Shown here: positions 8,853 through 24,778 of the stretch, piece after piece
How the letters are laid out: each line of letters begins with the position of its first letter
How positions within the stretch are numbered: the stretch's first letter is position 1
Assembly (NCBI GenBank): GCA_043779265.1
Contig: JAYWEM010000128.1
Location: 1 to 62,310 of the forward strand
Source: a bacterium
GTDB taxonomy: Bacteria > Eisenbacteria > RBG-16-71-46
Direction: 5' to 3'
Length of the DNA stretch: 62,310 nt
Notes under the pieces: generated by a model
What the model was told of the DNA's origin: nothing
The model's database searches: none
Seen by the model: only the letters and a program-made list of their open reading frames with translations
Program-made: the position numbers and the translations under genes

Positions 8853-10172
8853 GTGGACCATCCGTTGCAGCGTCAGCTCGAGGCCCTGTGGGGCCTCGAA
8901 CGTCGGCGCGACAAGCTCGGCCTCGAAGGCACACGCACCTTGCTCGCCGCTCTCGGCGACCCGCAGGCGCGCTGGTCGGCCGTGCATGTCGCAGGCACGA
9001 ACGGCAAGGGCTCGGTGTGCGCCATCATCGAGCGCGTGCTTCGCGCCGCGGGCCTCAAGACCGGGCTCATGACATCGCCGCATCTGGTGGACTTCCGCGA
9101 GCGCATCCGCGTCTCGGGCCAGTGGCCCGACGCCGACCTGCTGAAGTCGCGCCTCGATGCGATCGCGGCGCTGCCGGGTGCCTCGGAGTTCACGTTCTTC
9201 GAAGTGACGACCGGCCTGGCGTTCGAGCACTTCGCACGAGAGCAGGTGGACTGGGGAGTGGTCGAAGTGGGCATGGGCGGGCGCCTCGACACCACCAACG
9301 TGCTGAAGCCCAAGGTGTGCGCGATCACGCAGATCGGTCTCGATCACGCCGAGGTGCTCGGTGCGACCCACTCAGCGATTGCGCTGGAGAAGGCGGGCAT
9401 CTTGAAGCCCGGGGTGCCCGCGGTCTCGGGCGTCGAGAACGATGCCGCTGCGACCGTGATCGCACGGCACGCCGAACAGGTGGGCGCCCCGCTCCATCTC
9501 GCGCGCGATGTGGTCGAGGTGAGGCAGGCCACTTACGGCGCGTGGGGCACGCGACTCGAGGTGGTGTGCGAACCGTGGGGGCGATTCCAGCTCCAACTCG
9601 CGATGCGTGGCAGCCATCAGCGCGAGAACGCACGCGTCGCGCTCGCGGTGTTGGCGCTGCTGGCGAGGCAGGGCGTGCCTCTCTCGTTGACCGCGGTGCG
9701 CGATGGATTCGCATCGGTGCGCTGGCCGGGCCGGCTCGAGCCGAGTCCGACGGTGCGGCGCCTGTGGTGGGATGGGGCGCACAACCTGGACGGCGTGCGG
9801 CGGCTCTCGCAGGCCTGGCTGGACGACATGAAGCTGGAGCCGCCCACGGCGATCGTGTTCGCGTGCGCCCGCGACAAGGACGCACGCGCCATGCTGCAGC
9901 GCCTGCACGCCATGGCGCCCGAAGCCCGGTTCGTGCTGACGCGCTCGGCGAGTGAGCGTGCGCTCGATCCGCAGACGTTGCTCGAGGCCGCGGCGCAGCT
10001 GTCGATCGCCGCCGAGAGCGCCGCCTCGGTACGAGAGGCGCTCTCGATGTTGCTCGACCACTCGCCCGATGGTCGCGGCCAGGCGGCGGGTCGCGTGCTG
10101 CTCGCGGGTTCGCTGTTCGCGGTCGGCGAGGCGATGGAAGCGTTCGGCGGCGCGCCGGGCGAGGCGGCATGA
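8853..10172 (+). CDS. folC: Folylpolyglutamate synthase/dihydrofolate synthase
   Basis: HVAGTNGKGS, TSPHLVDFRERI, EVGMGGRLDTTN, WPGRLE, DGAHN; accD-folC synteny. Confidence 0.93.
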   Translation: MDHPLQRQLEALWGLERRRDKLGLEGTRTLLAALGDPQARWSAVHVAGTNGKGSVCAIIERVLRAAGLKTGLMTSPHLVDFRERIRVSGQWPDADLLKSRLDAIAALPGASEFTFFEVTTGLAFEHFAREQVDWGVVEVGMGGRLDTTNVLKPKVCAITQIGLDHAEVLGATHSAIALEKAGILKPGVPAVSGVENDAAATVIARHAEQVGAPLHLARDVVEVRQATYGAWGTRLEVVCEPWGRFQLQLAMRGSHQRENARVALAVLALLARQGVPLSLTAVRDGFASVRWPGRLEPSPTVRRLWWDGAHNLDGVRRLSQAWLDDMKLEPPTAIVFACARDKDARAMLQRLHAMAPEARFVLTRSASERALDPQTLLEAAAQLSIAAESAASVREALSMLLDHSPDGRGQAAGRVLLAGSLFAVGEAMEAFGGAPGEAA

Positions 10173-13100
10173 GGCGCCTGCTCGCAGCGCTCGCCCTCTT
10201 GCTGCTGCTGATGCCGCTCGCGGCTCCCAGCCACGCCGCGCCTTCCGATCCGCCCTATCGCATCCAGGCCGATAACATGACCGGCGGGCGAGGCACCGAG
10301 GGCGACGTGCTGCTCCTGAACGGCAATCTCGTCGTCGAGCGAGGTCGTACGCGGCTCACGGCGGACAACGGTCGCTATATGCGGTCGAACGGCATGATCT
10401 TCCTGATGGGCCATGTCCGGCTGATCGATTCGACGGTGACGGTGACCTGCGACAACGCGTCGTTCAATGAGAACGACGACCGGCTCGACCTCGAGGGCAA
10501 CGTCGTGATCCAGGATCGCGAAGCCACACTGCGCGCTCCGATCGGATCGTGGGATCGCGGCACCGGTGTCGCCCGACTGCTGGGCGGCGTGAACGGTGTC
10601 GATCGCAAGCAGCGCTTCTTCGCCAATGAGGCCGAGTACGATCGCGAACGCGGCCGGATCCTGGCGAAGGGCCGGGTCAAGGGGCTCGACGAGGAGAACC
10701 GGCTCGAGCTGGATGCGGACAACGTGGACTACGACCGGACGACGCGCGTCGCGATCGCGACTGGGGATCCCGTGCTGCGCCAGCGAGACGGCGATGGCCG
10801 CGTCAGCCTGCTGCGCGCGCTGCGGCTGCGCGTCGACAGTGTGCGCAAGACCGCCGAGGCGATCGACTCGGTGCGGATCGAGCGCGACACGCTGCGTGCC
10901 TCGGCCCAATACGCGTTCTTCGATGACTCGACCGGCCGTGGGCTGCTGCTCGGGCAGCCGAGGGCCTGGGACGACGAGACCACAGTCTCGGGCGACACGC
11001 TCGAGACGTGGTCGGAGGATCGCAAACTGAAGAAGGTGGTCGTGCTGGGGCACGCCGCCATGGACTACGCCGGGCTGCGCGAGTCGAACCAGGGCGAGAC
11101 GAGCCGCCTGACCGGGCAACGCATCGAGGCGTTCCTCACCGAGGACCGCATCGACTCGCTGATCGCGCTTGGCGAAGCGAGGAACGCGTATGCGGCCGCG
11201 CCTCGTGACGGCAAGACGCCCGAGACGAACTCGGCGCAGGGCGACACCATCCGCGTGCTGTTCAAGGGCAAGAAGATCGATCGCGCCCGCGTGACCGGAC
11301 AGGCGCGCGGCGAGTACCGCCCGCCGATGGCGCTCGAGGACTCGCTCGGCATCTTGGCCGAGGTCATCCGCTACGAGGGCAAGGCGATCGAGTTCGAGGT
11401 GCCCAAGGATCGCATCGTCCTCGACGGCGATGCGCACCTGACGTACCGCGAGATGGAACTGAACGCGCGCCGCGTCGTGTTCGACAGCAAGAAGCAGACG
11501 CTGGTCGCCGAGGGCAAGCCGCAGTTGGTCGACAAGGGCGACCGGCTCGATGGCCATCTCATGAGCTACGACCTCGAGAGCCGCACCGGCACGATCTACG
11601 AGGCGAAGACCGCCTACGAGCGAGGGCTCTATCACGGCTCGCGCATCCGCAAGGTGGGCGATGACGAGTTGCACGTCCTCGACGGGCGATACAGCACCTG
11701 CGACCTCGACTCACCCCACTATCACTTCTCCGCGAGGTGGATGAAGATCTATCTCAAGGACAAGCTGGTGGCGAAGCCCGTCGTGTTCTACCTGCGCAAC
11801 GTGCCGATCCTGGCGCTGCCGTTCTACGTGTTCCCGATCAAGCCGGGGCGGCACTCCGGGTTCCTGTTCCCGCAATTCGAGTTCGGCTTCAGCGACCGGA
11901 CGGGGCAGTTCGTGCGCAATGCGGGCTACTACTGGGCGCCGAACGACTACCTCGATGTCAGCGCCGCGGTGGACTACTACCAAGCGCAGCCGGCCTGGCT
12001 CACGCGGCTCGAGGGCAACTATAAATTGCTCTACGGCTTCGAGGGCCGCGTCGACTTCCGCTTCCAGCGCGATCAGTCCAATGAGCGTGACGATTACGTG
12101 TTCCAGTCGAGCCACGTCCAGGAAGTCACGCCTCGCACTCGCCTCGTCGCGCGCGGTGACTTCGTCTCGAGTCGCGACTTCAGCGGCGATCCGCTCTCGG
12201 GCGGCACGCTCGCCCAGCGCCTCAATCGATTCCTCACTTCGACGCTCACCGTCACGCACGCCGCGGACTGGGCGGCCTTCAACGTCGTGCTCGACCGTCG
12301 CCAGGATCTCGACGCCGCGGTCTCGATCCTGGACCGAGACGGTGAGGGCCCGCTCCAGGGCCCTCGGCCCGGCACGCAGGCATCGCTGCCGTCGCTGACG
12401 CAGGCCGAGCCGAGGCTCTCGGTCAGCTTCCCGACGCGCACGATCGGCAGCGCCTCGTGGCTCAAAGACACGCCGTTCGCGAACACATTCAAGAGCACGT
12501 ACTTCTCGATGAGCGCGCGCTTCACATCGTCGCGCACGGAGCGGTCGTTCGTCGATGGCTACCGCCACTTCCTCAATGCCGACAGTCTTGCCGATTCGAC
12601 GACGACGCTCGCCACGCGCAACACGCTCCGGCGCGGGTTCGGCTCCAATCTCAGTCTGAGCGACTCGAGGCGGCTGTTCGGCTGGCTCAACTTCGCGCCG
12701 AACGTCTCGGCACAGGCCGTCGTCTTCGATTTCGATGAGACGGGGCGCACGATCGTGCCGGCGGGCGTGTTCAGCAGCGGTGCCGGGATGGGCATGTCGT
12801 TGTTCCGATCGCTGCGAACTCCAGTGAAGGCGCTCGGACTGCGGCACATCGTCTCTCCGACGCTGTCGGTGCAGTACGCGCCCGAGTTCCGAGGGTTGCA
12901 GTTCACCGACACGCTCGGCGTCCGCCGCAACCGGTTCAATCCGTTCAGCGATATCGGCATCTCGGGATTCGAGGTTGGCCGATTGTCGTTCGGTCTCGAT
13001 CAGCGACTGCAGGCCAAGTGGACGGACGGCGACAAGGTGACGCGGCTCGACAACCTGCTCGCACTGAGTTCCTCGGGCAGCTACAACCTGCTGTGGCGCA

Positions 13101-13675
13101 AGCAGGGGCAGACGCGCGGACTGTCGCCGATCAGCAACGTGCTGCGCATCCAGCCGCCCGGCTATCTCTCGGGCGACATCAATGCGGTCGTCGACCCGCT
13201 CCTCGGGCGGCCGCTGCGCAGTCTCGGCACCAACATCGGCTTCCATCTCGCCAGCTCCGGCGCCAAGGCGGGGCAGAAGGCGCAGCTCGCCACGGATGCG
13301 ACGAGGCCCGCCGGCACGGTTGCCGCCGCCGAGGAGTTCCGTGAGAGCTGGCGGTTGTCGAGCGCGCTGTCGCACGCAGGCGGCTACGCGGGTCCTTCGT
13401 GGCGCACGCAGACGGCGCTCAATGCATCGCTCAGCTACCAGTTCACGCCGAATTGGCGATTCGACTACTCCACCTACTACGACCTGACGCTGGGCGAGCC
13501 GGTCGCGCAGACCTTGAACATCACTCGCCGCATCCATTGTTGGGACGCTTCGTTCACACGGTCGTTCGCACCTGGCAGCGGTGCGGAGTACTACTTCCGA
13601 CTCGGCATCACCGAACAGCGCGAGGTCTACTACGAACGGGGCTCGCGCGTTCAGAGCTTCGGCGGCATTCAGTAG
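10169..13675 (+). CDS. lptD: LPS assembly protein LptD with long N-terminal OstA/LptA-like beta-jellyroll extension
   Basis: Signal peptide; [36 protein letters not shown] LptD motifs; about 390 extra N-terminal residues of OstA-like repeats. Confidence 0.8.
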
Positions 13676-13697
13676 AACGTCGCCGCGAGGAGCCCCG

Positions 13698-16046
13698 ATG
13701 TCCTTCGTGCCCCTGCAGTCGATCCGACGTGAGAGCGAGTCGCCGCCCGACATCACCGAGACGCTGCGCCTGCGCATCTCGGGGATGCACTGCGCCTCGT
13801 GCGTCACGCGTGTCGAGCAGGCGTTATCGGGCGTGGACGGCGTGGCGGCTGCGAGCGCCAATCTGGCCACCATGCGCGCCGAAGTGCAGCTGTCGCATCC
13901 GGTCGAAGCCGCCAGCTTCGCCGAGGCCGTGCGTGGAGCGGGATACGACGCGCATGTCGTCACCTCGCCCGTCGCCGATGACGCCGAGGAGCGCGCTCGC
14001 GCCGCCGAGGTGAACGAGACGAAGCGGCGCTTCCTGGTCGCCGCCATCTTCGCCGTGCCGGTGATGGTGCTCGGGCATCTCATGCTCATCCCCGGGGCGC
14101 CCGCGATCGACCCGCAGCGATCGAACCTGATCCAGTTGCTGTTGGCCTCCGTCGTCCAGTGGGGGGCAGGCTGGCCGTTCGTGCGTGGCGCCTGGCGAGG
14201 GCTGTCGCGCCGAGCTCCGGACATGGACACGCTCGTCGGGCTCGGCACGCTGACCGCCTATGGCTACTCGCTCGTCGCGACGCTCGCGCCCGCGTGGGTG
14301 GCCGATCCGCATGCGGCGCATGCAGGCGCGGCGCACACCTACTTCGATACCGCGGTCACGATCGTCACGTTGATCCTGCTCGGGCGGCTGCTCGAAGCGC
14401 GCGCCAAGGCGGGCGCCTCGCGCGCGATGCGCGGCCTGCTCGACCTGCGGCCCCGCATCGCACGGCTCCTGCGGGCGGAGGGCGAGTCGGTCGATCTCGA
14501 ACGCGAGACGCCACTCGATGCGATCCGCGTCGGCGACGAACTGCTGGTGCGCCCGGGCGAGCGCGTCCCGGTCGATGGCGTCGTTGTGGACGGACGCTCG
14601 GCGGTCGATCGATCGATGCTGACCGGAGAGCCCATCCCGGTCGAGGTTGCGCCCGGCTCGCGGGTGACCGGCGCGACGCTCAACACGAACGGCTCGTTCC
14701 GCCTGCGCGCCGAGCGTGTCGGCGCGGAGGCGATGCTCATGCAGATCGTGAGCGCGGTCGAGCGTGCCCAGGCGAGCAAGGCCAAGGTGCAGCATCTGGC
14801 GGACCGCATCGCCTCGGTGTTCGTGCCCATCGTGCTCGTGATCGCGCTGGTCGCCGGCATTGCCTGGGCGATGAGCGGCGCGGGTCTTGCCCAGTCGCTG
14901 CTGCCCGTGATCGCGGTGCTGATCGTCGCATGCCCCTGTGCGCTCGGACTGGCGACGCCCACCGCGCTCATCGTCGCGACCGGCCGAGGCGCCGAGTTGG
15001 GGCTCCTCGCGCGCGGTGCCGAGGCGCTGGAGGCAGGTGAGCAGATCGACACCGTGGTGTTCGACAAGACGGGCACGCTGACGAGGGGCGCACCGCAGAT
15101 CACGGCGGTCGTGCCAGCGGCGGGCGTGACCGAAGAGACGGTGCTGCGAGCCGCTGCGACCGCCGAATCGAGAAGCGAGCACCCGCTCGCGCTGGCGGTG
15201 GTCCGTGGAGCCCGCGAGCGCGGCGTCGAGCCGGCGCCGCTCGAGGACTTCGGCGCGACGCCGGGCCTCGGCGTGTTCGCGTTGTCCGCGGGTCGCGCCA
15301 TCGCCGTCGGCAGCGATGCGTTCGTCGCCGAGTACGGCGCCGATCCCAGCGTGCTCGCCGCCGATCGCGAGCGGCTCGAGTCCGAGGGCCGAACGGTGAT
15401 CGCCGTCTGCGAACAGGGCGCGATGCTCGGGCTGATCGCACTCGCCGACACGCTCCGCCCCGAGGCGAGGGCAGTCGTCGAGGCCCTGGGCGCCGATGGC
15501 CGTGCCGTGTGGATGCTGACGGGAGACGCGCTGGCACCGGCTCGGGTGATGGCACGCGCCGCGGGCATTGCCGAATCGCACGTGCTCGCGAATGTGCGCC
15601 CCAATGAGAAGCGCGCGCGCATCGCCCAACTGCGCGCCTCGGGCCGCCGCGTCGCGATGGTGGGTGATGGGCTCAACGATGCACCCGCGCTGGCGGAGGC
15701 TGACCTCGGGTTGGCGATGGCGAGCGCGACCGATGTGGCGATGCAGGCCAGCGGCATCACGCTCCTGAGAGGCGATCTGACCGCGGTGCCGGACGCCCTG
15801 GCCCTGGCGCGTCGCACGCTGCAGGTGATCCGGCAGAACCTGTTCTGGGCGTTCCTCTACAACATCGTGCTCATCCCGGTGGCCGCGGGCGTACTGGTGC
15901 CGCTGATGCGCCAAGGTGGCCCGATCGGTCCTTTGTTCGGCTGGCAGGGGGGACTCCACCCCATGCTCGCCTCGCTCGCCATGGCGCTCTCGAGTGTCTC
16001 GGTCGTGCTGTCCTCGTTGCGGTTGCGGCGGTTCCGGGGCGCCTGA
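13698..16046 (+). CDS. copA: Cu(I)/Ag(I)-translocating P1B-1 ATPase
   Basis: GMHCASC HMA domain, [37 protein letters not shown] and MxxSS transmembrane ligands. Confidence 0.9.
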
Positions 16047-16141
16047 GGCCGGATCCCCGAGGTCAGGGCTCGGTGAGGAATCGGGCCCCGCTCGAGTGGA
16101 GGCTGGCGTCGAACCCCGGCCATCCCGATAATCCCCGCACG

Positions 16142-16561
16142 ATGAGATCGCGTCGCCCTCCATTCCTGCGCGTGTTGTTCGCTTTCGTGTTCGCCCTGGT
16201 CCTGCCAGTGGCGGCCTCGCATTGCGCGACGATGTCGCTCAGGGCCACGTCGGACAGCGGTGACAGCGCCATGGGGATGCGCGCCGACCACTCGTGCTGC
16301 GTCAGTGGCACCAGGGCCGGCGATCGCGCGATGCCGGTGAGCGAATCGGATTGTGTCTGCGTCGGACTGCCGTCGGCGACGGCGCCCTCGACGCTCTCAC
16401 TGGACGCCCCGGATGTACTCGAGATGGCGATTCTCCTGGCCGCGGCGCTCAACCCGCCGACGTTGCCCTCGCTCCCGCGCACGCCGCGTTCGAGCGAACC
16501 GCCGCTTGTCGTATGCGAGGCCAACGGCCTCTGGCTGCGCGGCCCGCCCGCACAGGGCTGA
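16142..16561 (+). CDS. Small exported Cys-rich protein with C-terminal RGPP motif (DUF2946/CutF/CruR-like leader)
   Basis: Signal-like N-terminus, HSCC and CVC motifs, Pro-rich tail ending WLRGPPAQG; lies immediately upstream of the efflux operon. Confidence 0.65.
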   Translation: MRSRRPPFLRVLFAFVFALVLPVAASHCATMSLRATSDSGDSAMGMRADHSCCVSGTRAGDRAMPVSESDCVCVGLPSATAPSTLSLDAPDVLEMAILLAAALNPPTLPSLPRTPRSSEPPLVVCEANGLWLRGPPAQG

Positions 16562-16663
16562 TCCCGCTCCGTCCACTCCGATCGAGGGACCCGCTTCGCG
16601 TCCGTGCGCGGCGCTGACACGCTCCTCTGCCATCCGCGCAGTGAGAGCCCGGGAGAAGACCTA

Positions 16664-17977
16664 GTGAATCCGATGCTGTCCGCCGCGCTCGTCGCGGCTC
16701 TCATGGCCACCGCCTCACACGCCGCGTCGCTGCCCGAGACGCTGACGCTCGAGTCCGCGGAAGCGCTCGCGTTGGCCTCGGCGCGGCCCGAGCGCCGCGC
16801 CGCCTCGGCCGCACTCGATCTCGCGAGGGCCGAGTCGCTCTCAGTCCGTGCAGCTGCCCCGATCGAGTGGTCGGTGATGCACGCGCGTGCCGGCGAGTCG
16901 TTCGCAGGTGGGGAGTCGCGCGCCTGGGAGCTCGAGGTCTCCAGGGAGTTCGATCCGTGGGGCCGTCGCTCGCTCGCCACGCAACGCGCCGGGCTCGAGA
17001 GCCAGTCGGCGAACCTCGCGGGTGCGGCACTCGACTCGCGACTGCGGATCGAGGCGCACGCCGCGTTGCGTGAGGCGGCCTTCGCCGAGCGGCGCCTCGC
17101 ACGGCTCGAAGCGCTCGCGATGGGCGAACGGCGGCTGGCCGGGCGTGTCGCCGCTCGTGTCGCCGAGGGCTCGATGACGGCACTGGAAGGACGGCTCGCC
17201 GTGCTCGAGCGTGCCAGTGTCGAGGCGCAGGTCTCGCGAGCCGAGGCGGCGCATGTGGCGGCGCGGTCGTCGCTCGCCCGCTCGCTCGGCGTGACGGATG
17301 CGGCGTGGGCGATGCGGGTCCAGCTCGAGGTGAGCAGCGCACTCGATACGACGAGTGGCGCGATCGATCTCGACCGGCTTCTCGAGGCGCGTCCGGATCT
17401 GGCCGAGGCGAAGTCGCACGTCGCGGCCGCCGAGGCGGGCGAGCGGCAGTCGGCGCTCGCGGGACGCCCGGGCCTGACGCTGTCGATCGGCGCCAGCGTC
17501 GAGTCCTCGGAGTCCGGCGCCGATGTCTTCCTCGGCGACGCGGGCGGGCTGACGGGACTGCGTGAGGACGATCGCGGGCTTTCGGCGCGCGTCAGCGCGC
17601 TGTGGCCGGGCGCAGCGAGCGCCCGCGCCGAACGAGCGGCCGCGACGGCCGCGAGGGCCCGCGCCGGGGCCGAGCTCGCCGTGCTCGATGCCGATCTGCG
17701 GTCCGACGCGCGGGCCGCGCACGCCGCATTCGTGCGGGCGGCTCGGACGGCTCACGCCTGGCGTGCCCTGAGCACTCAGGCCGAGGGCGATCTCGAACGA
17801 GTGCGCGCCGCCTATGCGGATGGTCGCCTGCCGCATGCCGACTACGTCTCGCTCCGCCGTCAGTTGGTGGACGCGGTGCGCGACGCGCTGGAGATGGAAG
17901 AAGCTCATTGGACGACGCGCGCCGCTTTCGAGCGCGCCATCGGCACGACACTCGAGAAGTCGGGGGAGGTGAGGTGA
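16664..17977 (+). CDS. TolC/CzcC family outer membrane efflux protein
   Basis: Signal peptide, RPDL and YADG motifs, helical repeats; first gene of the OMF-MFP-RND triad; start approximate. Confidence 0.8.
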   Translation: MNPMLSAALVAALMATASHAASLPETLTLESAEALALASARPERRAASAALDLARAESLSVRAAAPIEWSVMHARAGESFAGGESRAWELEVSREFDPWGRRSLATQRAGLESQSANLAGAALDSRLRIEAHAALREAAFAERRLARLEALAMGERRLAGRVAARVAEGSMTALEGRLAVLERASVEAQVSRAEAAHVAARSSLARSLGVTDAAWAMRVQLEVSSALDTTSGAIDLDRLLEARPDLAEAKSHVAAAEAGERQSALAGRPGLTLSIGASVESSESGADVFLGDAGGLTGLREDDRGLSARVSALWPGAASARAERAAATAARARAGAELAVLDADLRSDARAAHAAFVRAARTAHAWRALSTQAEGDLERVRAAYADGRLPHADYVSLRRQLVDAVRDALEMEEAHWTTRAAFERAIGTTLEKSGEVR

Positions 17978-19455
17978 TGGACCGGTTCCGCATCGTCGTC
18001 GGGGTGTGGCTCACCCTGTTGCTGCCGATCGCCGCGATCGCGCACGAAGGACACGTCCACGCCGAACTCGAAGGAGCCGCTCCCGCGGCGGCGGTGGCGA
18101 TCACGCGCTCGGCCTCCTCGCAGCGGCACGAAGTCGTGATGCGAGCGCCCGCGCTGCGTCCGAAATCGGAGGCCAAGATCGACCTCTACGTGAGCGACTG
18201 GGCGACGAACGCTCCGGTCACCGGCGCAACGGTGATGATCGAGTTGCGTCCGAAGGAGCGAGCCTCGGATGGGACGCGGCTCGAGGCGAAGCCCGAGGCC
18301 GCCGGGGTCTACGCTGCGGAGATGAACTTGCCCGAGACCGGCGACTACAACGTGCTCGTCACGGTGCGCTCGGGCTCGGGGACGGATGAGTTCGCGCTCG
18401 CCTCCGTACGAGTCGAGCCGGCCCCGCCCGAGGCGAGAGGCGCGTGGCCCCCGCTGCTGCTCGTGGCTGGCGCCGCGCTCTCGCTGGTCGCGCTCATCCT
18501 GCTGGCGGCGTTCATCAGCCGGCGATGGCGCGCCCGCAGCGCGGTGGGCGCGCTGATGCTGCTCGGCCTGCTCGGTTCCGCTGCCTCGGCTCACGAGGGT
18601 CACTCGCATGCCGCCGCGGAGCCCGAGGCTGTCGTCACCGAGAGCGAGCACGTCCAGATGCTCAAGCCCTCTCAGTTCCTGCTCGGGGTGCGCACTCAGG
18701 TCGTGCGGCTCGAGCGCGTGCCGATGCAGGTGTCACTGCTCGGCCGAGTCGCGCCCAGGGGCGGCGCCGAGGTCGAAGTCGTGGCGCCGCAGGGCGGCCG
18801 CGTCGATCTGGCGAACGGGCGTGTCCCGGTGCTGGGGGAACACATCGTGCGCGGCCAACTGCTCGCACACCTCGTGGTCGTCGACTCGCTGGCGATCCGC
18901 GCGCCGATCGGCGGCGTCATCACCGGAGCGCATGTCGTGCACGGTCAGCGTGTGGAAGCGGGGCAGAAGCTCGTCTCTCTCCTCGATGCCTCGACCGTGT
19001 GGGTGCACGCGGATGTCTACGAGCGCGATCTCGCCGCAGTCGAGCGCGCCACGCGGGCCATCGTCACCAGTGACGCGTGGCCGGGCGAGCGGTTCACGGG
19101 CCGCCGTGTCGCACTGGGCGCCACGGCGAGCGAGTTGCCGGGAACGATCGAGGGCTGGTTCGAAGTTCCCAATCCGCGCGGCAAGCTGCGCGTCGGATTG
19201 CCGGTCTCGGTCGCGGTCGAACTCGGCGGCGCCGAACTGCTCACCGTGCTCCCGCGCGGAGCCGTGTTGGAGGACGCCGGGCGCGCCACGGTGTGGCTGC
19301 ACGAGTCGCCCGAGGAGTTCGCCTCGCGCCGGGTGGAGATCGTCGTCCGATTGGGCGACCGACTGGCGGTGCGCGGACTGCGTGACGGCGAACGTGCGGT
19401 GGTCGCCGGCGCACCGGCCATTGCAGCGCTGCCGCGCGTGAGCGAGGAGCACTAG
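17977..19455 (+). CDS. Efflux RND periplasmic adaptor (CusB/CzcB-like) with His-rich N-terminal extra domain
   Basis: IRAPIGGVI, GQRVEAGQKL, VWVHADVYERDL, GKLRVGL, GLRDGERAVV; two AHEGH motifs. Confidence 0.85.
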   Translation: MDRFRIVVGVWLTLLLPIAAIAHEGHVHAELEGAAPAAAVAITRSASSQRHEVVMRAPALRPKSEAKIDLYVSDWATNAPVTGATVMIELRPKERASDGTRLEAKPEAAGVYAAEMNLPETGDYNVLVTVRSGSGTDEFALASVRVEPAPPEARGAWPPLLLVAGAALSLVALILLAAFISRRWRARSAVGALMLLGLLGSAASAHEGHSHAAAEPEAVVTESEHVQMLKPSQFLLGVRTQVVRLERVPMQVSLLGRVAPRGGAEVEVVAPQGGRVDLANGRVPVLGEHIVRGQLLAHLVVVDSLAIRAPIGGVITGAHVVHGQRVEAGQKLVSLLDASTVWVHADVYERDLAAVERATRAIVTSDAWPGERFTGRRVALGATASELPGTIEGWFEVPNPRGKLRVGLPVSVAVELGGAELLTVLPRGAVLEDAGRATVWLHESPEEFASRRVEIVVRLGDRLAVRGLRDGERAVVAGAPAIAALPRVSEEH

Positions 19456-22400
19456 ATGTTCGATTGGATGATCGCGTTCTCGCTCAGGCGCCGTGTTCTG
19501 GTGCTGTGTGCGGCGCTCGGCCTGGTCCTGTACGGCTCGTGGGTCGTGCCGCGCATGCCGATCGACGTGTTCCCGGACCTCAATCGGCCCACGGTCACGG
19601 TGATGACCGAGGCGCACGGATTGTCGCCCGAGGAAGTCGAGTTGTTGGTCACCGTCCCGCTCGAACAGGCTCTGCTCGGGGCCGCCGGCGTGCAGCGCGT
19701 GCGTGCGACGAGCGGCATCGGGTTGAGTGTGATCGCCGTGGAGTTCGGTTGGGAGTCCGAGGTCGCGCTCGCGCGCCAGACGGTCGCCGAACGCCTCGCA
19801 CTGGCACGCGACCAGATCCCCGCGGGCCTGATCCCGGCGATGGGACCGGTCACCTCGATCATGGGCGAGATCCTGTTGCTCGGAATCGAGAGCGACTCCA
19901 CGATGACCGCCCCCGAGTTGAGGCGATTCGCCGACTACACACTGCGGCCGCGCCTGCTGTCGGTGCCCGGTGTGTCACAGGTGATCGCGATGGGCGGCGG
20001 CGTCGAGCAGGTGCACATCGAAGCCGATCCATCGCGCATGGCCGCTCTGGGGGTGACGCTCGAGGATGTCGCCAAGGCGGTCGAGGGCTCGAATGCGGAC
20101 AGCCGAGGCGGCGCGCTCGAGACCCAGGGCCGCGAGTGGCTGGTGCGGTCGATGGGACGCATCGAGCGACCCGAGGAACTGCTGTCGGCCGCGGTCGCGA
20201 CACGAGACGGTCTGCCGGTGCCCCTGTCGCAGGTGGCCGACGTCCGCATGGGCATCCAGCCGCTGCGCGGGACAGCCGGCGTCGATGGTCGACCGGCGGT
20301 CATCCTCTCGGTGCAGAAACAGCCGCATCAGAGCACGGTCTCGCTGACGCAGGAGATCGAGCATCTGATCGACGACCTCCGCCCGACGCTGCCCAAGGGC
20401 ATGAAGGTGCAGCCGATCTTCGTGCAGTCGCGCTTCATCGAGGCGGCGGTCAAGAACGTCGAGCACGCGCTGCGGGACGGCGCGATCCTGGTCGTGATCG
20501 TGCTGCTCTTGTTCCTGCTCAACTGGCGCACCACGTTCATCACGCTGACGGCGATTCCGCTGTCGTTCCTGACGGCACTGCTCGTGCTGCGGGCGATGGG
20601 CGCGAACATCGACACCATGGTGCTCGGTGGGATCGCGATCGCCATCGGCGAACTGGTCGATGATGCCATCGTCGATGTCGAGAACGTGTTCCGGCGACTG
20701 AGGGAGAATCGAACCGCCCAGGACCCCAAGCCGCCGCTGCAGGTCGTGCTGAGCGCCTCGCGTGAGGTGCGTAACGCGATCGTCTACTCGACCATCCTCG
20801 TCGTGCTCGTGTTCATCCCGCTCTTCGCGCTGGGCGGCATCGAGGGGCGGCTGTTCCGCCCGCTCGGCATCGCCTACGTCGTCAGCATCCTCGCTTCGTT
20901 CTTCGTGAGCCTCACGGTCACGCCGGCGCTGTGTGCCTGGCTGTTGCCGTCCGATCGCAGCCGCAGCGCGATCGACGAGACGAAGTTCGTGCGCGCGCTC
21001 AAGCGCATCGATCGGCGCTGGCTCGAGTCCACGCTGACTCGGCCGTGGCCGATCTTCGCGGTGGCGACGGTGCTGGTGCTCGCGGCGATCGCGGCACTGC
21101 CGTTCCTCGGCCGTGAGTTCCTGCCGCCGTTCAATGAAGGGACCGTCACGGTCGGCGTGCAGGCGCGGCCCGGGATCTCGCTCACCGAGTCGACGCGTCT
21201 CGGGGCGCTGGCCGAGCAGCTGCTCCATCAGGTGCCCGAGGTGACGTCGACCGGGCGGCGCACGGGCCGAGCCGAACGCGATGAGCACGCCGAGGGCGTG
21301 CACAGCAGCGAGATCGAGGTCGATCTCGCCGAGTCGAAGCGCTCGCGCGCCGAGATCCTCGCCGACTTGCGGCAGCGGCTGTCCGCGATCCCCGGCGTCT
21401 CGGTGAGCGTCGGCCAGCCGATCTCGCACCGACTCGATCACCTGCTCTCGGGTGTGCGGGCGCAGGTCGCGGTCAAGATCTCGGGGCCGGATCTCGCGGT
21501 CCTGCGGGCGCATGCGGCCGAGGTGGCCGACGTCATGGCGGCGGTGCCGGGGTTCGTCGATCTCCAGGTCGAGGCGCAGGCGGTCGTGCCGCAGTTGAAG
21601 GTCACGCCCGACCGCGCGGCGCTCGCCCGCTACGGCGTCACCGCGGAGGCGCTCGCCGAAGTGGTCGAGACCGCGGTGCAGGGGCACGCCGTGACGCAGT
21701 GGGTGGATGGGCCACGCCGCGTCGACGTCGTGCTGCGATTCGATGAGGCGGCGAGGCGGGACCCCGAGGCGATACGTGCGACCCGCGTGCAGACGTCCGA
21801 TGGCCGCGCGGTGCCGCTCTCGATGCTGGCGCAGGTCACGACCTCGTCGGGCCCCAACCAGATCGTCCGCGAGGACGGCGAGCGGCGCATCGTCGTGGCG
21901 GCCAACGTGGCGGGCCGCGACCTCGGCAGCACGGTGGATGAACTGCGACGCCGACTCGGCAACGAGTTGAGACTCCCGCCGGGCTATGCGCTGACGCTCG
22001 GCGGACAGTTCGAGAGTCAGGAGGCCGCGACCAAGTGGATCGCGTTCCTCGGGACGCTCTCGATACTCGGCATGCTCGTCGTGCTCATCTTGTACTACGG
22101 CTCGGTGATGCTGGCGCTGCAGGTCCTGATCAACATCCCGCTGGCGTTGATCGGCGCTGTGGCGGCGCTGGCGCTGACCGGCGGCACGCTGTCGGTCGCC
22201 TCGCTCGTCGGGTTCGTGACGCTCACGGGCATCGCCACCCGCAACACGATCCTGATGGTGTCGCACTACCTGCATCTCATGCACGAGGAGAAGATGCCGT
22301 TCGGGCGCGAACTGGTCGTGCGCGGCTCTCTCGAGCGACTCGTGCCGGTGCTGATGACCGCCGGCACGGCGATCCTCGCGCTGATGCCGCTTGCCTGGGC

Positions 22401-22581
22401 GCCCGGTGTGCCGGGCAAGGAGATCCTGCACCCGGTGGCGATCGTCATCCTGGGCGGCCTCGTGAGTTCGACGTTGCTCGACATGCTGGTCACGCCAGCG
22501 GTGTTCCTGAAGTTCGGTCAGAGGGCAGCGGAGGCGCACGCGCGCCGCGCCTCGAAGGTGGAAGAGGAGGGACTTCGATGA
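19456..22581 (+). CDS. Heavy-metal efflux RND permease (CusA/CzcA family)
   Basis: 1041 aa; IDVFPDL, AIGELVDDAIVDVEN, ERLVPVLMTA, GGLVSST. Confidence 0.93.
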   Translation: MFDWMIAFSLRRRVLVLCAALGLVLYGSWVVPRMPIDVFPDLNRPTVTVMTEAHGLSPEEVELLVTVPLEQALLGAAGVQRVRATSGIGLSVIAVEFGWESEVALARQTVAERLALARDQIPAGLIPAMGPVTSIMGEILLLGIESDSTMTAPELRRFADYTLRPRLLSVPGVSQVIAMGGGVEQVHIEADPSRMAALGVTLEDVAKAVEGSNADSRGGALETQGREWLVRSMGRIERPEELLSAAVATRDGLPVPLSQVADVRMGIQPLRGTAGVDGRPAVILSVQKQPHQSTVSLTQEIEHLIDDLRPTLPKGMKVQPIFVQSRFIEAAVKNVEHALRDGAILVVIVLLLFLLNWRTTFITLTAIPLSFLTALLVLRAMGANIDTMVLGGIAIAIGELVDDAIVDVENVFRRLRENRTAQDPKPPLQVVLSASREVRNAIVYSTILVVLVFIPLFALGGIEGRLFRPLGIAYVVSILASFFVSLTVTPALCAWLLPSDRSRSAIDETKFVRALKRIDRRWLESTLTRPWPIFAVATVLVLAAIAALPFLGREFLPPFNEGTVTVGVQARPGISLTESTRLGALAEQLLHQVPEVTSTGRRTGRAERDEHAEGVHSSEIEVDLAESKRSRAEILADLRQRLSAIPGVSVSVGQPISHRLDHLLSGVRAQVAVKISGPDLAVLRAHAAEVADVMAAVPGFVDLQVEAQAVVPQLKVTPDRAALARYGVTAEALAEVVETAVQGHAVTQWVDGPRRVDVVLRFDEAARRDPEAIRATRVQTSDGRAVPLSMLAQVTTSSGPNQIVREDGERRIVVAANVAGRDLGSTVDELRRRLGNELRLPPGYALTLGGQFESQEAATKWIAFLGTLSILGMLVVLILYYGSVMLALQVLINIPLALIGAVAALALTGGTLSVASLVGFVTLTGIATRNTILMVSHYLHLMHEEKMPFGRELVVRGSLERLVPVLMTAGTAILALMPLAWAPGVPGKEILHPVAIVILGGLVSSTLLDMLVTPAVFLKFGQRAAEAHARRASKVEEEGLR

Positions 22582-23384
22582 GACGACTCGCATTCCTCGC
22601 GCTGTTGGCGCTCGCGCTGGGCGCCTGCGGCAAGGCCGTGGACAAGAGCAGAACCTCCGCCACCCCGGGGACCATGGGTCCGGAGGCGCCTGTTGATTCG
22701 GCCTCGACGGCCGCGCCGATCGACCAGCGCGCCACTGCGCTGGCCGAGATCGAGGCCGAGCGTCTACGAGTGCAACAGGCGCTCGAGCGCGGTTCGCTCG
22801 ATGAGGCGCCGATGCCCGCGTATCGGTTGCGGGATCTGACGCGGGCATTCGCCTCGAAGGCGGCCGGCCTCTCGGCTTCGGACTCGCGCGCGCTCGCGTC
22901 GGCCTCCACGACGATCGGCACCGCCACGCTCGCGCTGGAGAAGGCGGCGACGCGAGGCGATATGGGCACCGCTCGCGAACGATTCGCCGAAGTGCAGGCC
23001 GCGCTGACGAGCTTCACCGGCGTCGCCGGACGGGCCAAGGTGAGCTGGATCGAGGCCGCGATGGAATCCCGCACGGTGCGCCTGCACGGCGAGATCATCG
23101 ACCCGCAGTGTTACTTCACGCACGATGGCCGCGGCGCCGATCACGCGTCGTGCGCCATCTTCTGCGCCCGGGGCGGTCAGGACCTCGCGTTCCTCGACGA
23201 GTCCGACGGGCGTGTCTACCCTCTCATCGCCGCCGCGCACGGCATGGACCCCAACCACGGCCTCTACCCGCACGTCGGGAAGGCTGTGAACATGGAGGGC
23301 GTTCTGTTCCGACGGGGCGCCACCGCTTTCCTTCTCATTCAACGGATCGACGGCCGTGAGGTCGTCTCATCGGAGGGATCATGA
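22578..23384 (+). CDS. Lipoprotein with putative metal-binding C-terminal domain
   Basis: Lipobox LGAC after MRRLAFLALLALA; GEIIDPQCY...HASCAIFC motif; GAGGAGG RBS. Confidence 0.7.
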   Translation: MRRLAFLALLALALGACGKAVDKSRTSATPGTMGPEAPVDSASTAAPIDQRATALAEIEAERLRVQQALERGSLDEAPMPAYRLRDLTRAFASKAAGLSASDSRALASASTTIGTATLALEKAATRGDMGTARERFAEVQAALTSFTGVAGRAKVSWIEAAMESRTVRLHGEIIDPQCYFTHDGRGADHASCAIFCARGGQDLAFLDESDGRVYPLIAAAHGMDPNHGLYPHVGKAVNMEGVLFRRGATAFLLIQRIDGREVVSSEGS

Positions 23385-23722
23385 ATCGCATTCGTTCCAT
23401 TTGGGCAGTTCTCGCACTCGCATTCCTCGTCACGGCCGGTTGCGCCGGCTCCAGCGGTCCTCGCGAGATCGCCGTCTCGGCCAACGCCAACGGCTTCGAG
23501 CCGGCGGTGATCGACGTGAAGCAGGGCGAGACCGTCGTGCTGGTCATGACGCGCACCGAGGACGGCACCTGCGCGACCGAAGCCCACTTCGAGGAACTCG
23601 GCCGCAAGGTGGATCTGCCGCTCAACGAGACGCAGCGCATCGAGATCCCGACCACGAACAAGGGCACGTTGCACTACGCATGCGCCATGAACATGTGGAA
23701 GGGCGAAGTCCGCGTGAACTAG
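23381..23722 (+). CDS. Cupredoxin domain lipoprotein (CupA-like)
   Basis: Lipobox TAGC; GFEPAVI, CATE, YACAMNMWKG copper ligand pattern. Confidence 0.85.
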   Translation: MNRIRSIWAVLALAFLVTAGCAGSSGPREIAVSANANGFEPAVIDVKQGETVVLVMTRTEDGTCATEAHFEELGRKVDLPLNETQRIEIPTTNKGTLHYACAMNMWKGEVRVN

Positions 23723-23792
23723 CCGCGCCGTGGCCGAACGGTCCCCACCGGTCCCGCTCGTCGCGGGCCGGCCGGGGTGCGTCGCCAAGGCC

Positions 23793-24620
23793 TCAGGCCA
23801 ATCCCCAGTCCTCGAGTTCGTCCTCGTCGAGGCCCAGCAGGTGGCCGACCTCGTGCTGCACCGTGATGCGGATCTCGCGTGCGAGATCCTCGCGGTCGGT
23901 GCAGGCGCGCAGCAGATTGCGTCGGAACAGATGGATCGAGCCCGGCACCTCGGGCGGTGCGCCTGAACTCTCGGCGAACAGATGATGACCCACGAACAGG
24001 CCCAGTAGATCCGGCGTCAGTGGAGGGCGGTCCTCGGTGAGCATGCTCTCGGTCGGCAGGTCCTGAACCACGACCGGCACCTCATCGAGCTTCGCGCGGA
24101 TCCGCTTCGGCAGCTCGGCCAGGCTCTTCTCGACCAGCGCATCGAAGTCCTCGCTGCTCACATCCAGCGGTTGCGGGAACTGCTCGGGGTCGAGCGCCTC
24201 GGCCTTCTCGCTGGCTTCCACAGCCTCGGAGCCGCGGCCGAGGAACTCGAGCGCGCGTGACAGCAGGTCCCATGCCTGTGCGTACCCCGGCACGATCGCC
24301 ACGGCGCGTTGCGCGTCGGCGCACGAGTCGGTGAATCGCACCAGATCGTAGTGCGCCGACGCACGGAGGAAGAAGAACTCCGAGGGGTCCGCTCCACGCT
24401 CGGCACCCTTCAGCGTCTCGAGCGCCTGCTCGGGCTCACCCTCTTCGAGGGAGAGGGTCGCATCGAGGATGCGGAGATCCGGCTGGCCGGGGCGTTTACG
24501 CACGAGCGCCGACACCGAGAGTCGGGCGGATTCGAGTTCACCCTCCTCCATGAGGTCGTGAACTCGCTCGACCTCGGCCCATTCGGTCTCACTGAGCGAG
24601 TCATACGGGGAGTGGGTCAT
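23793..24620 (-). CDS. TPR + Zincin_1 (DUF1025) metallopeptidase family protein
   Basis: N-terminal TPR-like helices; PDLLGLF, IHLFRRNL, TVQHEVGHLLGLDEDEL (HExxH). Confidence 0.85.
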   Translation of the reverse strand: MTHSPYDSLSETEWAEVERVHDLMEEGELESARLSVSALVRKRPGQPDLRILDATLSLEEGEPEQALETLKGAERGADPSEFFFLRASAHYDLVRFTDSCADAQRAVAIVPGYAQAWDLLSRALEFLGRGSEAVEASEKAEALDPEQFPQPLDVSSEDFDALVEKSLAELPKRIRAKLDEVPVVVQDLPTESMLTEDRPPLTPDLLGLFVGHHLFAESSGAPPEVPGSIHLFRRNLLRACTDREDLAREIRITVQHEVGHLLGLDEDELEDWGLA

Positions 24621-24778
24621 GTGGTGTGGAAGGTAGCCGGACTGAACCAGCGGGGCCAATGCGGGGACGACCGCGGCAAGGTCGATTCAGGCTGGTCGCT
24701 CGTGAGGCAGACGGGCTAGTGTTCCGCTGCTGTCCTGTCGTCTCCCCGATCCACCCCGAGAATCCTCGAGGCTCCGCC

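Follow-up and report, generated by a model that had tools for sequence, protein, structure and literature searches.

Introduction

How is a metal-efflux operon controlled when no regulator gene accompanies it? Such operons are usually credited to transcription factors or two-component systems, and neither was found when we scanned the cluster described here. The cluster lies in a stretch of 62,310 nucleotides (GenBank assembly GCA_043779265.1, contig JAYWEM010000128.1, positions 1 to 62,310 of the forward strand), referred to below as the window, from a bacterium of the Eisenbacteria (GTDB lineage Bacteria; Eisenbacteria; RBG-16-71-46). The operon encodes an outer-membrane efflux protein (OEP), a periplasmic adaptor (MFP), a resistance-nodulation-division (RND) pump, a lipoprotein-like protein and a cupredoxin, all on the forward strand. 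On the same strand, a small open reading frame (ORF) of 139 codons plus TGA (16142-16561) stands in front of it. Judged from sequence comparison, this ORF is probably a cis-acting leader rather than a structural protein: its nascent chain would arrest the ribosome at a C-terminal R-G-P-P motif, metal would modulate that arrest, and translation initiation of the five downstream genes would be controlled in this way. An earlier reading of the same DNA (the original prediction), which had interpreted the ORF as a metal-sensing arrest leader, is partly supported. An arrest leader is probable, membership of the DUF2946 family fails, and the class of target was already known.

A small reading frame with an invariant tail

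The leader ORF runs from ATG 16142 to the stop codon TGA at 16559-16561. Its G+C content at third codon positions (GC3) is 0.83 overall and 0.77-0.93 in each 90-nt window, in line with the flanking genes (0.83-0.90), which, in a window of 69% G+C, speaks for coding DNA and not for a frame open by chance. The protein begins MRSRRPPFLRVLFAFVFALVLPVAASHC. Its positively charged start precedes a hydrophobic segment of the signal-peptide or membrane-anchor kind (residues 7-26; Kyte-Doolittle mean 2.25 over residues 7-25) that is followed by H27-C28 (segment and H-C pair, 16160-16225). AlphaFold2, supplied with a 19-sequence alignment, predicted one confident helix at residues 7-41 (predicted local distance difference test (pLDDT) 82-96) and gave ~50 for the remainder. 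The signal peptide of the original prediction is seen as a hydrophobic, predicted helical N-terminus, a putative signal peptide or membrane anchor. Two Cys motifs conserved in the family follow, H50-S-C52-C53 (an HxCC motif, 16289-16300) and C71-V-C73 (16352-16360), the latter succeeded by L76-P77. Beyond them come a Pro-rich stretch, NPPTLPSLPRTPRSSEPP (residues 104-121), and a second Pro-Pro site (P121, followed by L122 in the window and by Pro in most relatives; 16502-16507), placed 9-11 residues before the Arg of the R-G-P-P codons (R133-P136, 16538-16549). The C-terminus reads WLRGPPAQG. The length of 139 residues, the H-C, HSCC and CVC motifs, the Pro-rich linker and this terminal sequence had all been described correctly from the DNA alone.

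Other readings of the N-terminal region were set aside. A longer version starting at GTG 16073 (162 aa, as in database entry P0001) was rejected because its additional 23 residues are unconserved in the ortholog and in P0002, and L-P-V-A-A-S-H-C was rejected as a lipobox, being unlike the usual L-[AS]-[GA]-C. Export through the twin-arginine translocation (Tat) pathway was dropped, the RR-x-x-F-L pattern being confined to the closest relatives. The start M-R-S-R-R-P-P-F-L-R (16142-16180) is loosely twin-arginine-like; the closest relatives carry MRTRRPTFLR and MRTRRPDWLR, and the rest of the family has no such sequence.

The leader belongs to a family that has escaped annotation. Neither Pfam nor NCBIfam holds a model matching it at E ≤ 1, and a word-indexed protein search returned its own protein only. 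Searching 1.84 billion representatives with phmmer yielded nine non-self proteins at E ≤ 1e-3, eight of which have the C-terminus R-[G/A]-P-P followed by three residues; the other one, P0010 (E 9.8e-4), lacks it. Six-frame searches of related genomes revealed an ortholog in the same genus (L006, 55% identity), a paralog on another contig of the same genome (C69) and many relatives at 25-35% identity. A profile built from 19 family members (A1) found matches (E ≤ 0.001) in 40 of the 206 genomes of the phylum: in 30/88 genomes of the window's own taxonomic family, in 5/41, 2/10, 1/15 and 1/3 of four others, and in none of the remaining families. A six-member alignment (A2) retrieved four loci in genome contigs, two of them true relatives, and two in metagenome contigs. 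Within a collection of 5.8 billion protein clusters, A1 matched 68 proteins, none with a Pfam domain and with 'hypothetical protein' as the only name. A feature search of the ESM Atlas was uninformative, with 29 of the 30 nearest clusters lacking a common Pfam family and none carrying DUF2946. The genome tallies of the six-frame searches and of the PF11162 scan described below, and possibly those of the profile searches of the phylum, take in one genome flagged as unpublished (G038), and the specific claims made here are independent of it.

Pooling all loci, removing duplicates by their last 60 residues and aligning the rest to the profile gave 51 distinct leader loci. R133, P135 and P136 are each present in 51/51, an invariance that makes the leader more than a chance product. 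The second position of the motif is Ala in 21 loci, Gly in 17 and Ser in 13, and three residues (47 loci) or two (4 loci) separate the motif from the stop. R[SGA]PP followed by three residues is the C-terminus of 67 of the 68 database proteins, and the remaining one, which breaks off immediately ahead of the Arg, seems to be truncated. To exclude circularity, the profile was rebuilt without its last 12 residues (A5) and the search of the phylum was repeated. It found 47 places: 44 known RxPP loci, two N-terminal fragments at contig ends and a single new one. Since these loci are recovered even when the profile has no tail, the R-x-P-P count is not circular. The new match is weak (E 4e-4); its product ends S-R-S-P-P-P-C-C, and a 428-aa ORF that appears OEP-like by eye follows.

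The Cys and His positions are conserved to different degrees: C71 in 50/51 loci, C52 and C53 in 45/51 each, H50 in 43/51 and C73 in 29/51. C28 occurs in 46/51, the other five being alignment gaps in rows that are N-terminally incomplete or trimmed. P121 is kept in 45/51 loci and followed by Pro in 41/51, and the distance from this second Pro-Pro site to the Arg is 9 residues in 21 loci, 10 in 29 and 11 in one. Between C71 and the Arg lie 60-66 residues (median 64) in all 51 loci. Conservation of RGPP in orthologs and of the Cys motifs upstream of efflux operons had been named beforehand as checks on the idea of a leader; the loci and database proteins answer both in its favor, with R-[A/G/S]-P-P at a near-fixed distance from the stop.

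Genes downstream of the leader family

To see what the 51 loci stand before, 83 candidate ORFs downstream of them were scanned. The gene that follows the leader encodes an OEP in 35 loci, a Cupredoxin_1 protein in 8 and a DUF5676 protein followed by an OEP in one; in five it is truncated or has no family above cut-off, and in two the contig ends. These neighborhoods support the conclusion that the leader family heads metal-efflux operons. Where more DNA was fetched, ORFs of ~500 and ~1037 aa come after the OEP gene, as in the window. Spacers between leader and OEP measure 91-147 nt, many of them 96-105 nt, with the exception of two loci (74 and 186 nt), and those between leader and cupredoxin 181-203 nt.

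The paralog on contig C69 (L033:1751-2173, ending SPRGPPDSA) heads a second metal island, its downstream part extending to 12567. This island comprises genes for a cupredoxin, a BNR-like protein (below cut-off), a YHS/HMBD P1B ATPase, an OEP, a CusB-type adaptor with HMBD and a 1341-aa RND protein, and is flanked by LigT and RecA genes. On four contigs two family leaders lie ~8-11 kb apart (G019:C32 (L026), G030:C8 (L027), G133:C91 and G135:C495 (L071/L084, L074/L087)). Three of these contigs combine a leader before an OEP operon with one before a cupredoxin gene; on G019:C32 both leaders stand before OEP genes. At L029 (G013:C163) a 117-aa ORF of the two-transmembrane DUF5676 type (2322-2675, as oriented) lies between leader and OEP.

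The original prediction regarded an RND/OEP efflux operon as a target class different from those characterized. It was already in print: in the survey of CutF-like proteins (n = 5,334; PMC9973294), OEPs of RND systems are reported as the most frequent downstream neighbor, followed by TonB-like proteins and PCuAC-like chaperones, with ACR_tran, HlyD_D23 and CusF also listed. Most spacers given there are below 100 nt, and CzcI is placed upstream of czcCBA.

Relation to DUF2946

An HMM search against DUF2946 had been proposed as a check, and it came out negative. At E ≤ 1 the window leader has no match to PF11162 (DUF2946; gathering score 23.7 bits), and none of the 19 members has one at E ≤ 10. 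A six-frame PF11162 scan of 61 related genomes likewise produced nothing over the cut-off and no sub-threshold match at loci of the leader family. The scan did reveal a second type of small ORF in the phylum, organized as HHH...C-A-x-C, 44 residues, [ST]-R-A-P-P and two final residues. All seven leaders of this type match PF11162 (best 2.9e-5; one at 24.4 bits against the cut-off of 23.7) and so serve as a positive control, and in 7/7 exactly 44 residues separate CxxC from RxPP. Their loci are L036, L038, L041, L043, L044, L045 and L046, the last (L046:376-687) in a genome of the same genus as the window; ~100-140 nt downstream of each lies an ORF with a signal-peptide-like start. Aligning A1 (19 sequences) with a profile of the seven local DUF2946 leaders, all from one phylum (A4), hhalign joined 11 columns, the RxPP tail only, at a probability of 1.7%.

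By these comparisons, the leader family appears to share the DUF2946 plan with no detectable sequence kinship, and both types coexist in one phylum. It is possible, though we consider it rather doubtful, that the family evolved independently as a metal-sensing arrest leader and converged with DUF2946 on a localization signal, a Cys/His sensor, a linker of fixed length and R-x-P-P. If so, metal-sensing nascent chains would have arisen more than once, in two types that can be compared within one phylum; the ~64 residues from sensor Cys to arrest point, as opposed to 44, would suit sensing beyond the membrane; and the anti-Shine-Dalgarno strand would lie in the last sense codons, which the stalled ribosome covers.

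Predicted pairing between the leader tail and the downstream start

Between the leader and the OEP start codon, GTG 16664, lies a spacer of 102 nt (16562-16663). It begins TCCCGCTCCGTCCACTCC and contains GCTCCTCTG, in agreement with the original description of an ORF ending about 100 nt before a tolC-like start, with tracts in the spacer resembling an anti-Shine-Dalgarno (anti-SD) sequence. The motif GGGAGAAG stands 8 nt upstream of GTG 16664, and a GTG start with GGAG 8 nt upstream is common to the window and the ortholog L006. The SD region CGGGAGAAG, which with the five remaining nucleotides of the spacer and the GTG occupies 16650-16666, forms a duplex of -7.1 kcal/mol with the anti-SD motif. 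In minimum-free-energy and duplex folds its partner is the strand consisting of the tail codons GCA CAG GGC, the stop TGA and TCCCG (16550-16566). When 16538-16685 was folded, CAC 16551-16553 paired with GUG 16664-16666, AGG 16554-16556 with CCU 16660-16662, CU 16558-16559 with AG 16657-16658 and UCCCG 16562-16566 with CGGGA 16650-16654, the last inside the SD. Folding of this region had been proposed as a test for sequestration of the SD; in silico, the leader tail is the strand that pairs with both SD and start. Enclosed by this pairing are three internal spacer hairpins (~16571-16590, 16593-16614 and 16621-16648; together 16571-16648), a layout that recurs in the same-genus ortholog and, with compensatory changes, in the sister subfamily described below.

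The duplex of the tail with SD and start has a predicted energy of -17.3 kcal/mol in the window, matched by 2% of equal-length windows of the leader coding sequence and by none of the spacer. L006 keeps the three-part pairing despite a different spacer (-20.8 kcal/mol; 9% of coding windows match or beat it). The best-sampled group of relatives, a sister subfamily of 18 loci with tails of the form ...SPR[S/G]PPYSA, offered a comparative view. In its alignment RNAalifold proposed, unprompted, three internal hairpins, two of which show compensatory changes, and a helix of 7 bp in which UCCGCCU (the final two codons and the U of the stop) pairs with AGGCGGA (the OEP SD). In this structure 96.2% of cells are paired, vs 33-42% when the partners are slid by 1-3 columns, and eight pairs are changed on both sides, a count reached by 5 of 500 shuffles. 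At third codon positions the tail Ser carries C in 18/18 loci and the tail Ala in 17/18, whereas the codons for R, x, P and P use 2-4 bases; the tail thus appears constrained at the RNA level. Complementarity between tail and SD is present in the window, the ortholog and the sister subfamily. An arrested ribosome covers ~12-15 bases past the P site. If its P site held the first Pro codon, as assigned by analogy with ApdA and ApdP, these bases would be exactly the tail codons of the sister subfamily.

Proposed mechanism and alternatives

We propose the following sequence of events. The hydrophobic N-terminus would bring the nascent chain to the membrane, and the ribosome would arrest on RGPP when its P site holds the first Pro codon, an assignment of P and A sites made by analogy with ApdA and ApdP as described in PMC10951233. 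During arrest C28, H50-x-C-C and C71-x-C73 would sit 60-110 residues behind the arrest point, outside the ribosome and probably on the periplasmic side, where metal loading of the Cys and His residues, most likely by Cu(I), could set the length of the pause. The metal is probably copper, given the subfamily of the neighboring ATPase and the cupredoxins. With no paused ribosome, the last leader codons and UCCCG would pair with the OEP SD, the spacer before the start and the GUG 102 nt downstream; a ribosome held on the RGPP codons would cover the anti-SD strand and so free the OEP initiation site. The genes for MFP, RND pump, lipoprotein and cupredoxin would follow by translational coupling, as their overlapping start and stop codons suggest. 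We infer the arrest itself, its modulation by metal, the identity of that metal, the prolongation of arrest by metal, and unmasking of the SD rather than Rho as the output.

Several observations weigh against this proposal. The 148-nt fold of the window gains no stability over shuffled sequence: z is +0.64, and 142 of 200 shuffles equal or exceed it. Forcing nucleotides 1-22 to be single-stranded, as a mimic of a ribosome on RGPP, frees the GUG and the spacer before it and leaves UCCCG:CGGGA paired, so full exposure of the SD by the stall is unsupported for the window; in this model the SD would be opened more effectively by a terminating ribosome, which would cover UCCCG, than by a stalled one. 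In the sister-subfamily helix between tail and SD, three pairs are invariant and four changed on one side, so that none carries a change on both. Nor is the complementarity general: of the 48 loci for which a downstream start was assigned, only 11 pair better than 95% of the windows in their own coding sequence (median rank 0.21), and loci of the cupredoxin type or with spacers of 131-147 nt mostly have no significant pairing. The moderately C-rich spacer (41 C vs 30 G) would also suit a Rho site. RSPP, described as only partially permissive for arrest (PMC12992588), is the tail of 13/51 loci and 38/68 database proteins. At the N-terminus, export by way of the Tat-like S-R-R-P-P-F-L, a pattern confined to the closest relatives, would take place after translation and would abolish the coupling. 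Lastly, the region preceding the leader ATG (16117-16141 in the window) holds no GGAG-type SD in either the window or L006; such a sequence lies 6-12 nt before the leader ATG in the other 9 of 11 loci examined.

Four other explanations of the locus were weighed. The same arrest leader could have a transcriptional output, in which the paused ribosome shields the RNA from Rho and its release leads to termination in the 102-nt spacer; for the pump to be induced, metal would then need to stabilize the pause. CruR, the sole dissected metal leader of the RAPP type, uses Rho with a 162-nt spacer as reported in PMC9426467. In the window the spacer and the 3' part of the leader have more C than G (C/G 1.2-1.4 over 16410-16647), and only part of the family pairs tail with SD. 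On the other side, the spacer is predicted to fold extensively, into three hairpins of which two have sister-subfamily counterparts with compensatory changes, whereas Rho sites as a rule have little structure; the tail codons of window, ortholog and sister subfamily show specific complementarity to the SD; and an excess of 41 C over 30 G is modest. On balance we consider termination by Rho an unlikely output for this locus. It and unmasking of the SD are not mutually exclusive, and an output through Rho, of the CruR kind, or a mixture of mechanisms may occur within the family. Plain translational coupling, by which any ribosome reaching the leader stop would open UCCCG:CGGGA with neither programmed arrest nor metal sensing, fits the position of the SD-pairing UCCCG just past the stop, where a terminating ribosome rather than one on RGPP would cover it, and the other genes of the operon are indeed coupled by overlapping codons. 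Such coupling leaves unexplained the invariance of R-x-P-P, the fixed length of the tail, the Cys motifs and the 60-66-residue spacing over 51 loci, and we rate it as very improbable.

A different kind of explanation gives the product itself the function, as a small periplasmic or membrane-anchored metal-binding protein acting in trans, for instance a pump chaperone or accessory like CusF or a CopL-like protein, with RxPP merely tuning its own synthesis or serving as a binding motif. The several conserved Cys and His residues behind an N-terminal hydrophobic segment, the constant location in metal clusters and the lack of a CusF homolog among the scanned ORFs of the window cluster would all suit such a protein. 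AlphaFold2 confidence beyond the N-terminal helix is low (pLDDT ~50), however; besides one Cys, the sole invariant positions are those of R-x-P-P, 2-3 residues from the stop; and in the sister subfamily the tail codons hardly vary at their synonymous sites. Published accounts point the same way: RAPP and RGPP are reported as the most avoided tetrapeptides in bacterial proteomes (PMC12992588), and CutF and CruR as degraded or undetectable proteins that act in cis (PMC9973294, PMC9426467). A trans-acting role thus seems improbable. That the ORF might be a chance open frame in 69% G+C DNA rather than a gene was considered because long ORFs occur in all six frames of the window and no family library matches the leader. 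This is already refuted by GC3 (0.83) throughout the leader, by relatives of 25-55% identity at the same place before OEP genes in 40/206 genomes of the phylum, and by the 68 database proteins matching the profile.

Comparison with characterized leaders

The class of mechanism and its link to RND/OEP systems are already known from CruR, CutF and the survey in PMC9973294. CruR of Bordetella pertussis (Bp2923), the prototype of DUF2946 (PF11162), is described as carrying CXXC and, three residues from its end, RAPP, and as exerting an arrest-dependent, Rho-mediated copper control for which a distance of ~45 residues (within 1-2) between Cys motif and RAPP matters (PMC9426467). According to that account it resembles the window leader as a small upstream ORF of the exported type with conserved Cys residues and a copper-related operon behind a long G+C-rich spacer; it is likewise predicted to have little structure, comparable with the low pLDDT of our leader beyond the N-terminal helix. 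The HMM profiles match over the last 11 columns only, the motifs are HxCC and CxC/CC(C) as opposed to CXXC in CruR and CxxxC in CutF, and the spacing is 60-66 residues rather than ~45. CruR represses an uptake receptor through Rho, as reported, whereas the leader stands before an efflux operon, so its metal response should be induction.

CutF of Rhodobacter capsulatus has a Sec-type N-terminus, with which the putative signal peptide of the leader may be compared, and like the leader it carries a Cys motif and, at the C-terminus, a Pro motif (PMC9973294). Its stall is proposed to melt a stem-loop hiding the SD of the next gene, with copper prolonging the stall, and CutF-dependent unmasking of the cutO SD is reported as shown (PMC9973294). 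The CutF motif GPPPRL represents a polyproline stall dependent on elongation factor P (EF-P), the PPP stall having been tied to EF-P in bioRxiv 10.1101/2025.02.05.636593, whereas R-G-P-P is of the EF-P-refractory type; CutF regulates a multicopper oxidase, and the leader heads an efflux operon. By the filters for CutF-like proteins given in PMC9973294, the leader has 139 aa (<150), a Pro-Pro pair at 135-136 (within the last 15 residues) and a same-strand OEP gene at 102 nt (<1000). CzcI of Cupriavidus metallidurans, in one network with SilD and CusD, is also a small Cys/His protein before a CzcCBA-type RND operon and has been proposed as a metal-sensing regulator; as described there, it is without a C-terminal proline motif (PMC9973294), and our comparison follows that description only.

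The arrest peptides ApdA, ApdP and SecM (RAPP/RAGP) have the R-A/G-P-P core, small size and a localization signal in common with the leader (PMC10951233). As described, they sense translocation rather than metal, carry no Cys motifs and precede secA, secDF or yidC. With R-A/G-P-P near the C-terminus of a small protein that has a hydrophobic N-terminal segment, the leader shows the core feature of the RAPP type. RGPP and RAPP are reported to give the most robust arrest, refractory to EF-P, to be depleted from proteomes and to be enriched near the C-termini of small exported proteins, including some upstream of metal-related genes (PMC12992588). The RAPP/RGPP ORFs of that GTDB survey, among them SLIV_16130 of Streptomyces lividans, resemble the leader in being small, exported and Cys/His-bearing and in preceding copper-related genes, and arrest in vitro is reported for Streptomyces examples (PMC12992588). 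Compared by description, the targets named there are TonB receptors, YcnI, PCu(A)C, PepSY and Dsb/thioredoxin proteins; the words 'efflux' and 'TolC' are absent from its main text.

Against this background, the sequence family, its Cys signature, the ~64-residue spacing, the second Pro-Pro site and the anti-SD strand in the tail codons are new as set against the published descriptions. The locus adds a rare and unannotated family, mainly of one candidate phylum, to the nascent-peptide metal sensors represented by CruR and CutF. Its arrest core, RGPP/RAPP, is the strongest known; its Cys signature differs from theirs, and so does its tightly conserved distance from sensor to arrest point. The DUF2946 leaders of the same phylum, with their 44 residues, offer a natural comparison of how the position of the sensor relative to tunnel or translocon relates to the site of metal sensing. 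Practical value is modest and lies in better annotation of the 'hypothetical' small ORFs before CusCBA-type pumps.

Operon and flanking genes

Upstream of the leader, with a gap of 95 nt, lies a gene for a copper-type P1B ATPase (CopA-like, 13698-16046, start Met 13698; Pfam E1-E2_ATPase, Hydrolase and HMA), which scores 540 bits against NCBIfam TIGR01511 (ATPase-IB1_Cu; cut-off 397). The operon proper begins with the OEP gene (TolC/CusC-like, 16664-17977; Pfam OEP, 1.8e-12) and continues with the adaptor gene (CusB/CzcB-like with an N-terminal YtkA-like domain, 17977-19455; Pfam HlyD_D23 and YtkA, NCBIfam RND_mfp and CzcB/NccB), the gene for a heavy-metal RND pump of the CusA/CzcA family (19456-22581; Pfam ACR_tran 9.8e-268; TIGR00914 789.7 bits, cut-off 701), the lipoprotein-like ORF (22578-23384; no family match above cut-off) and the cupredoxin-like gene (23381-23722; Pfam Cupredoxin_1, 8e-16). 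The junctions OEP/MFP, MFP/RND, RND/lipoprotein and lipoprotein/cupredoxin read TGATG, TAG-ATG (abutting), ATGA and ATGA. With the five genes joined in this way, the unit has a single real gap, the 102-nt spacer that follows the leader.

The neighborhood scan covered GC3-filtered ORFs of at least 70 aa in 10169-24659, so that a small regulator failing the filter could be missed. It identified LptD, the P1B ATPase, the leader, OEP, MFP, RND, cupredoxin and Zincin_1, and among these ORFs no match to a transcription-factor or two-component family, which bears out, within that scope, the earlier remark that the cluster holds no CsoR, CueR or two-component regulator. A scan of 13000-24500 for promoters returned no sigma-70-like promoter, and a terminator scan of the same interval gave four terminator-like sites vs 2.1 expected, one of them inside the leader (16334-16349), none of which we judged meaningful.

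Two of the operon's products have unusual features. In the adaptor the motif AHEGH(V/S)H occurs twice, preceded both times by a hydrophobic segment; like the YtkA-like domain, this is unusual for the CusB/CzcB type. The lipoprotein-like protein begins MRRLAFLALLALALGACG and carries a Cys/His-rich C-terminal stretch, DPQCYFTHDGRGADHASCAIFCARGG.

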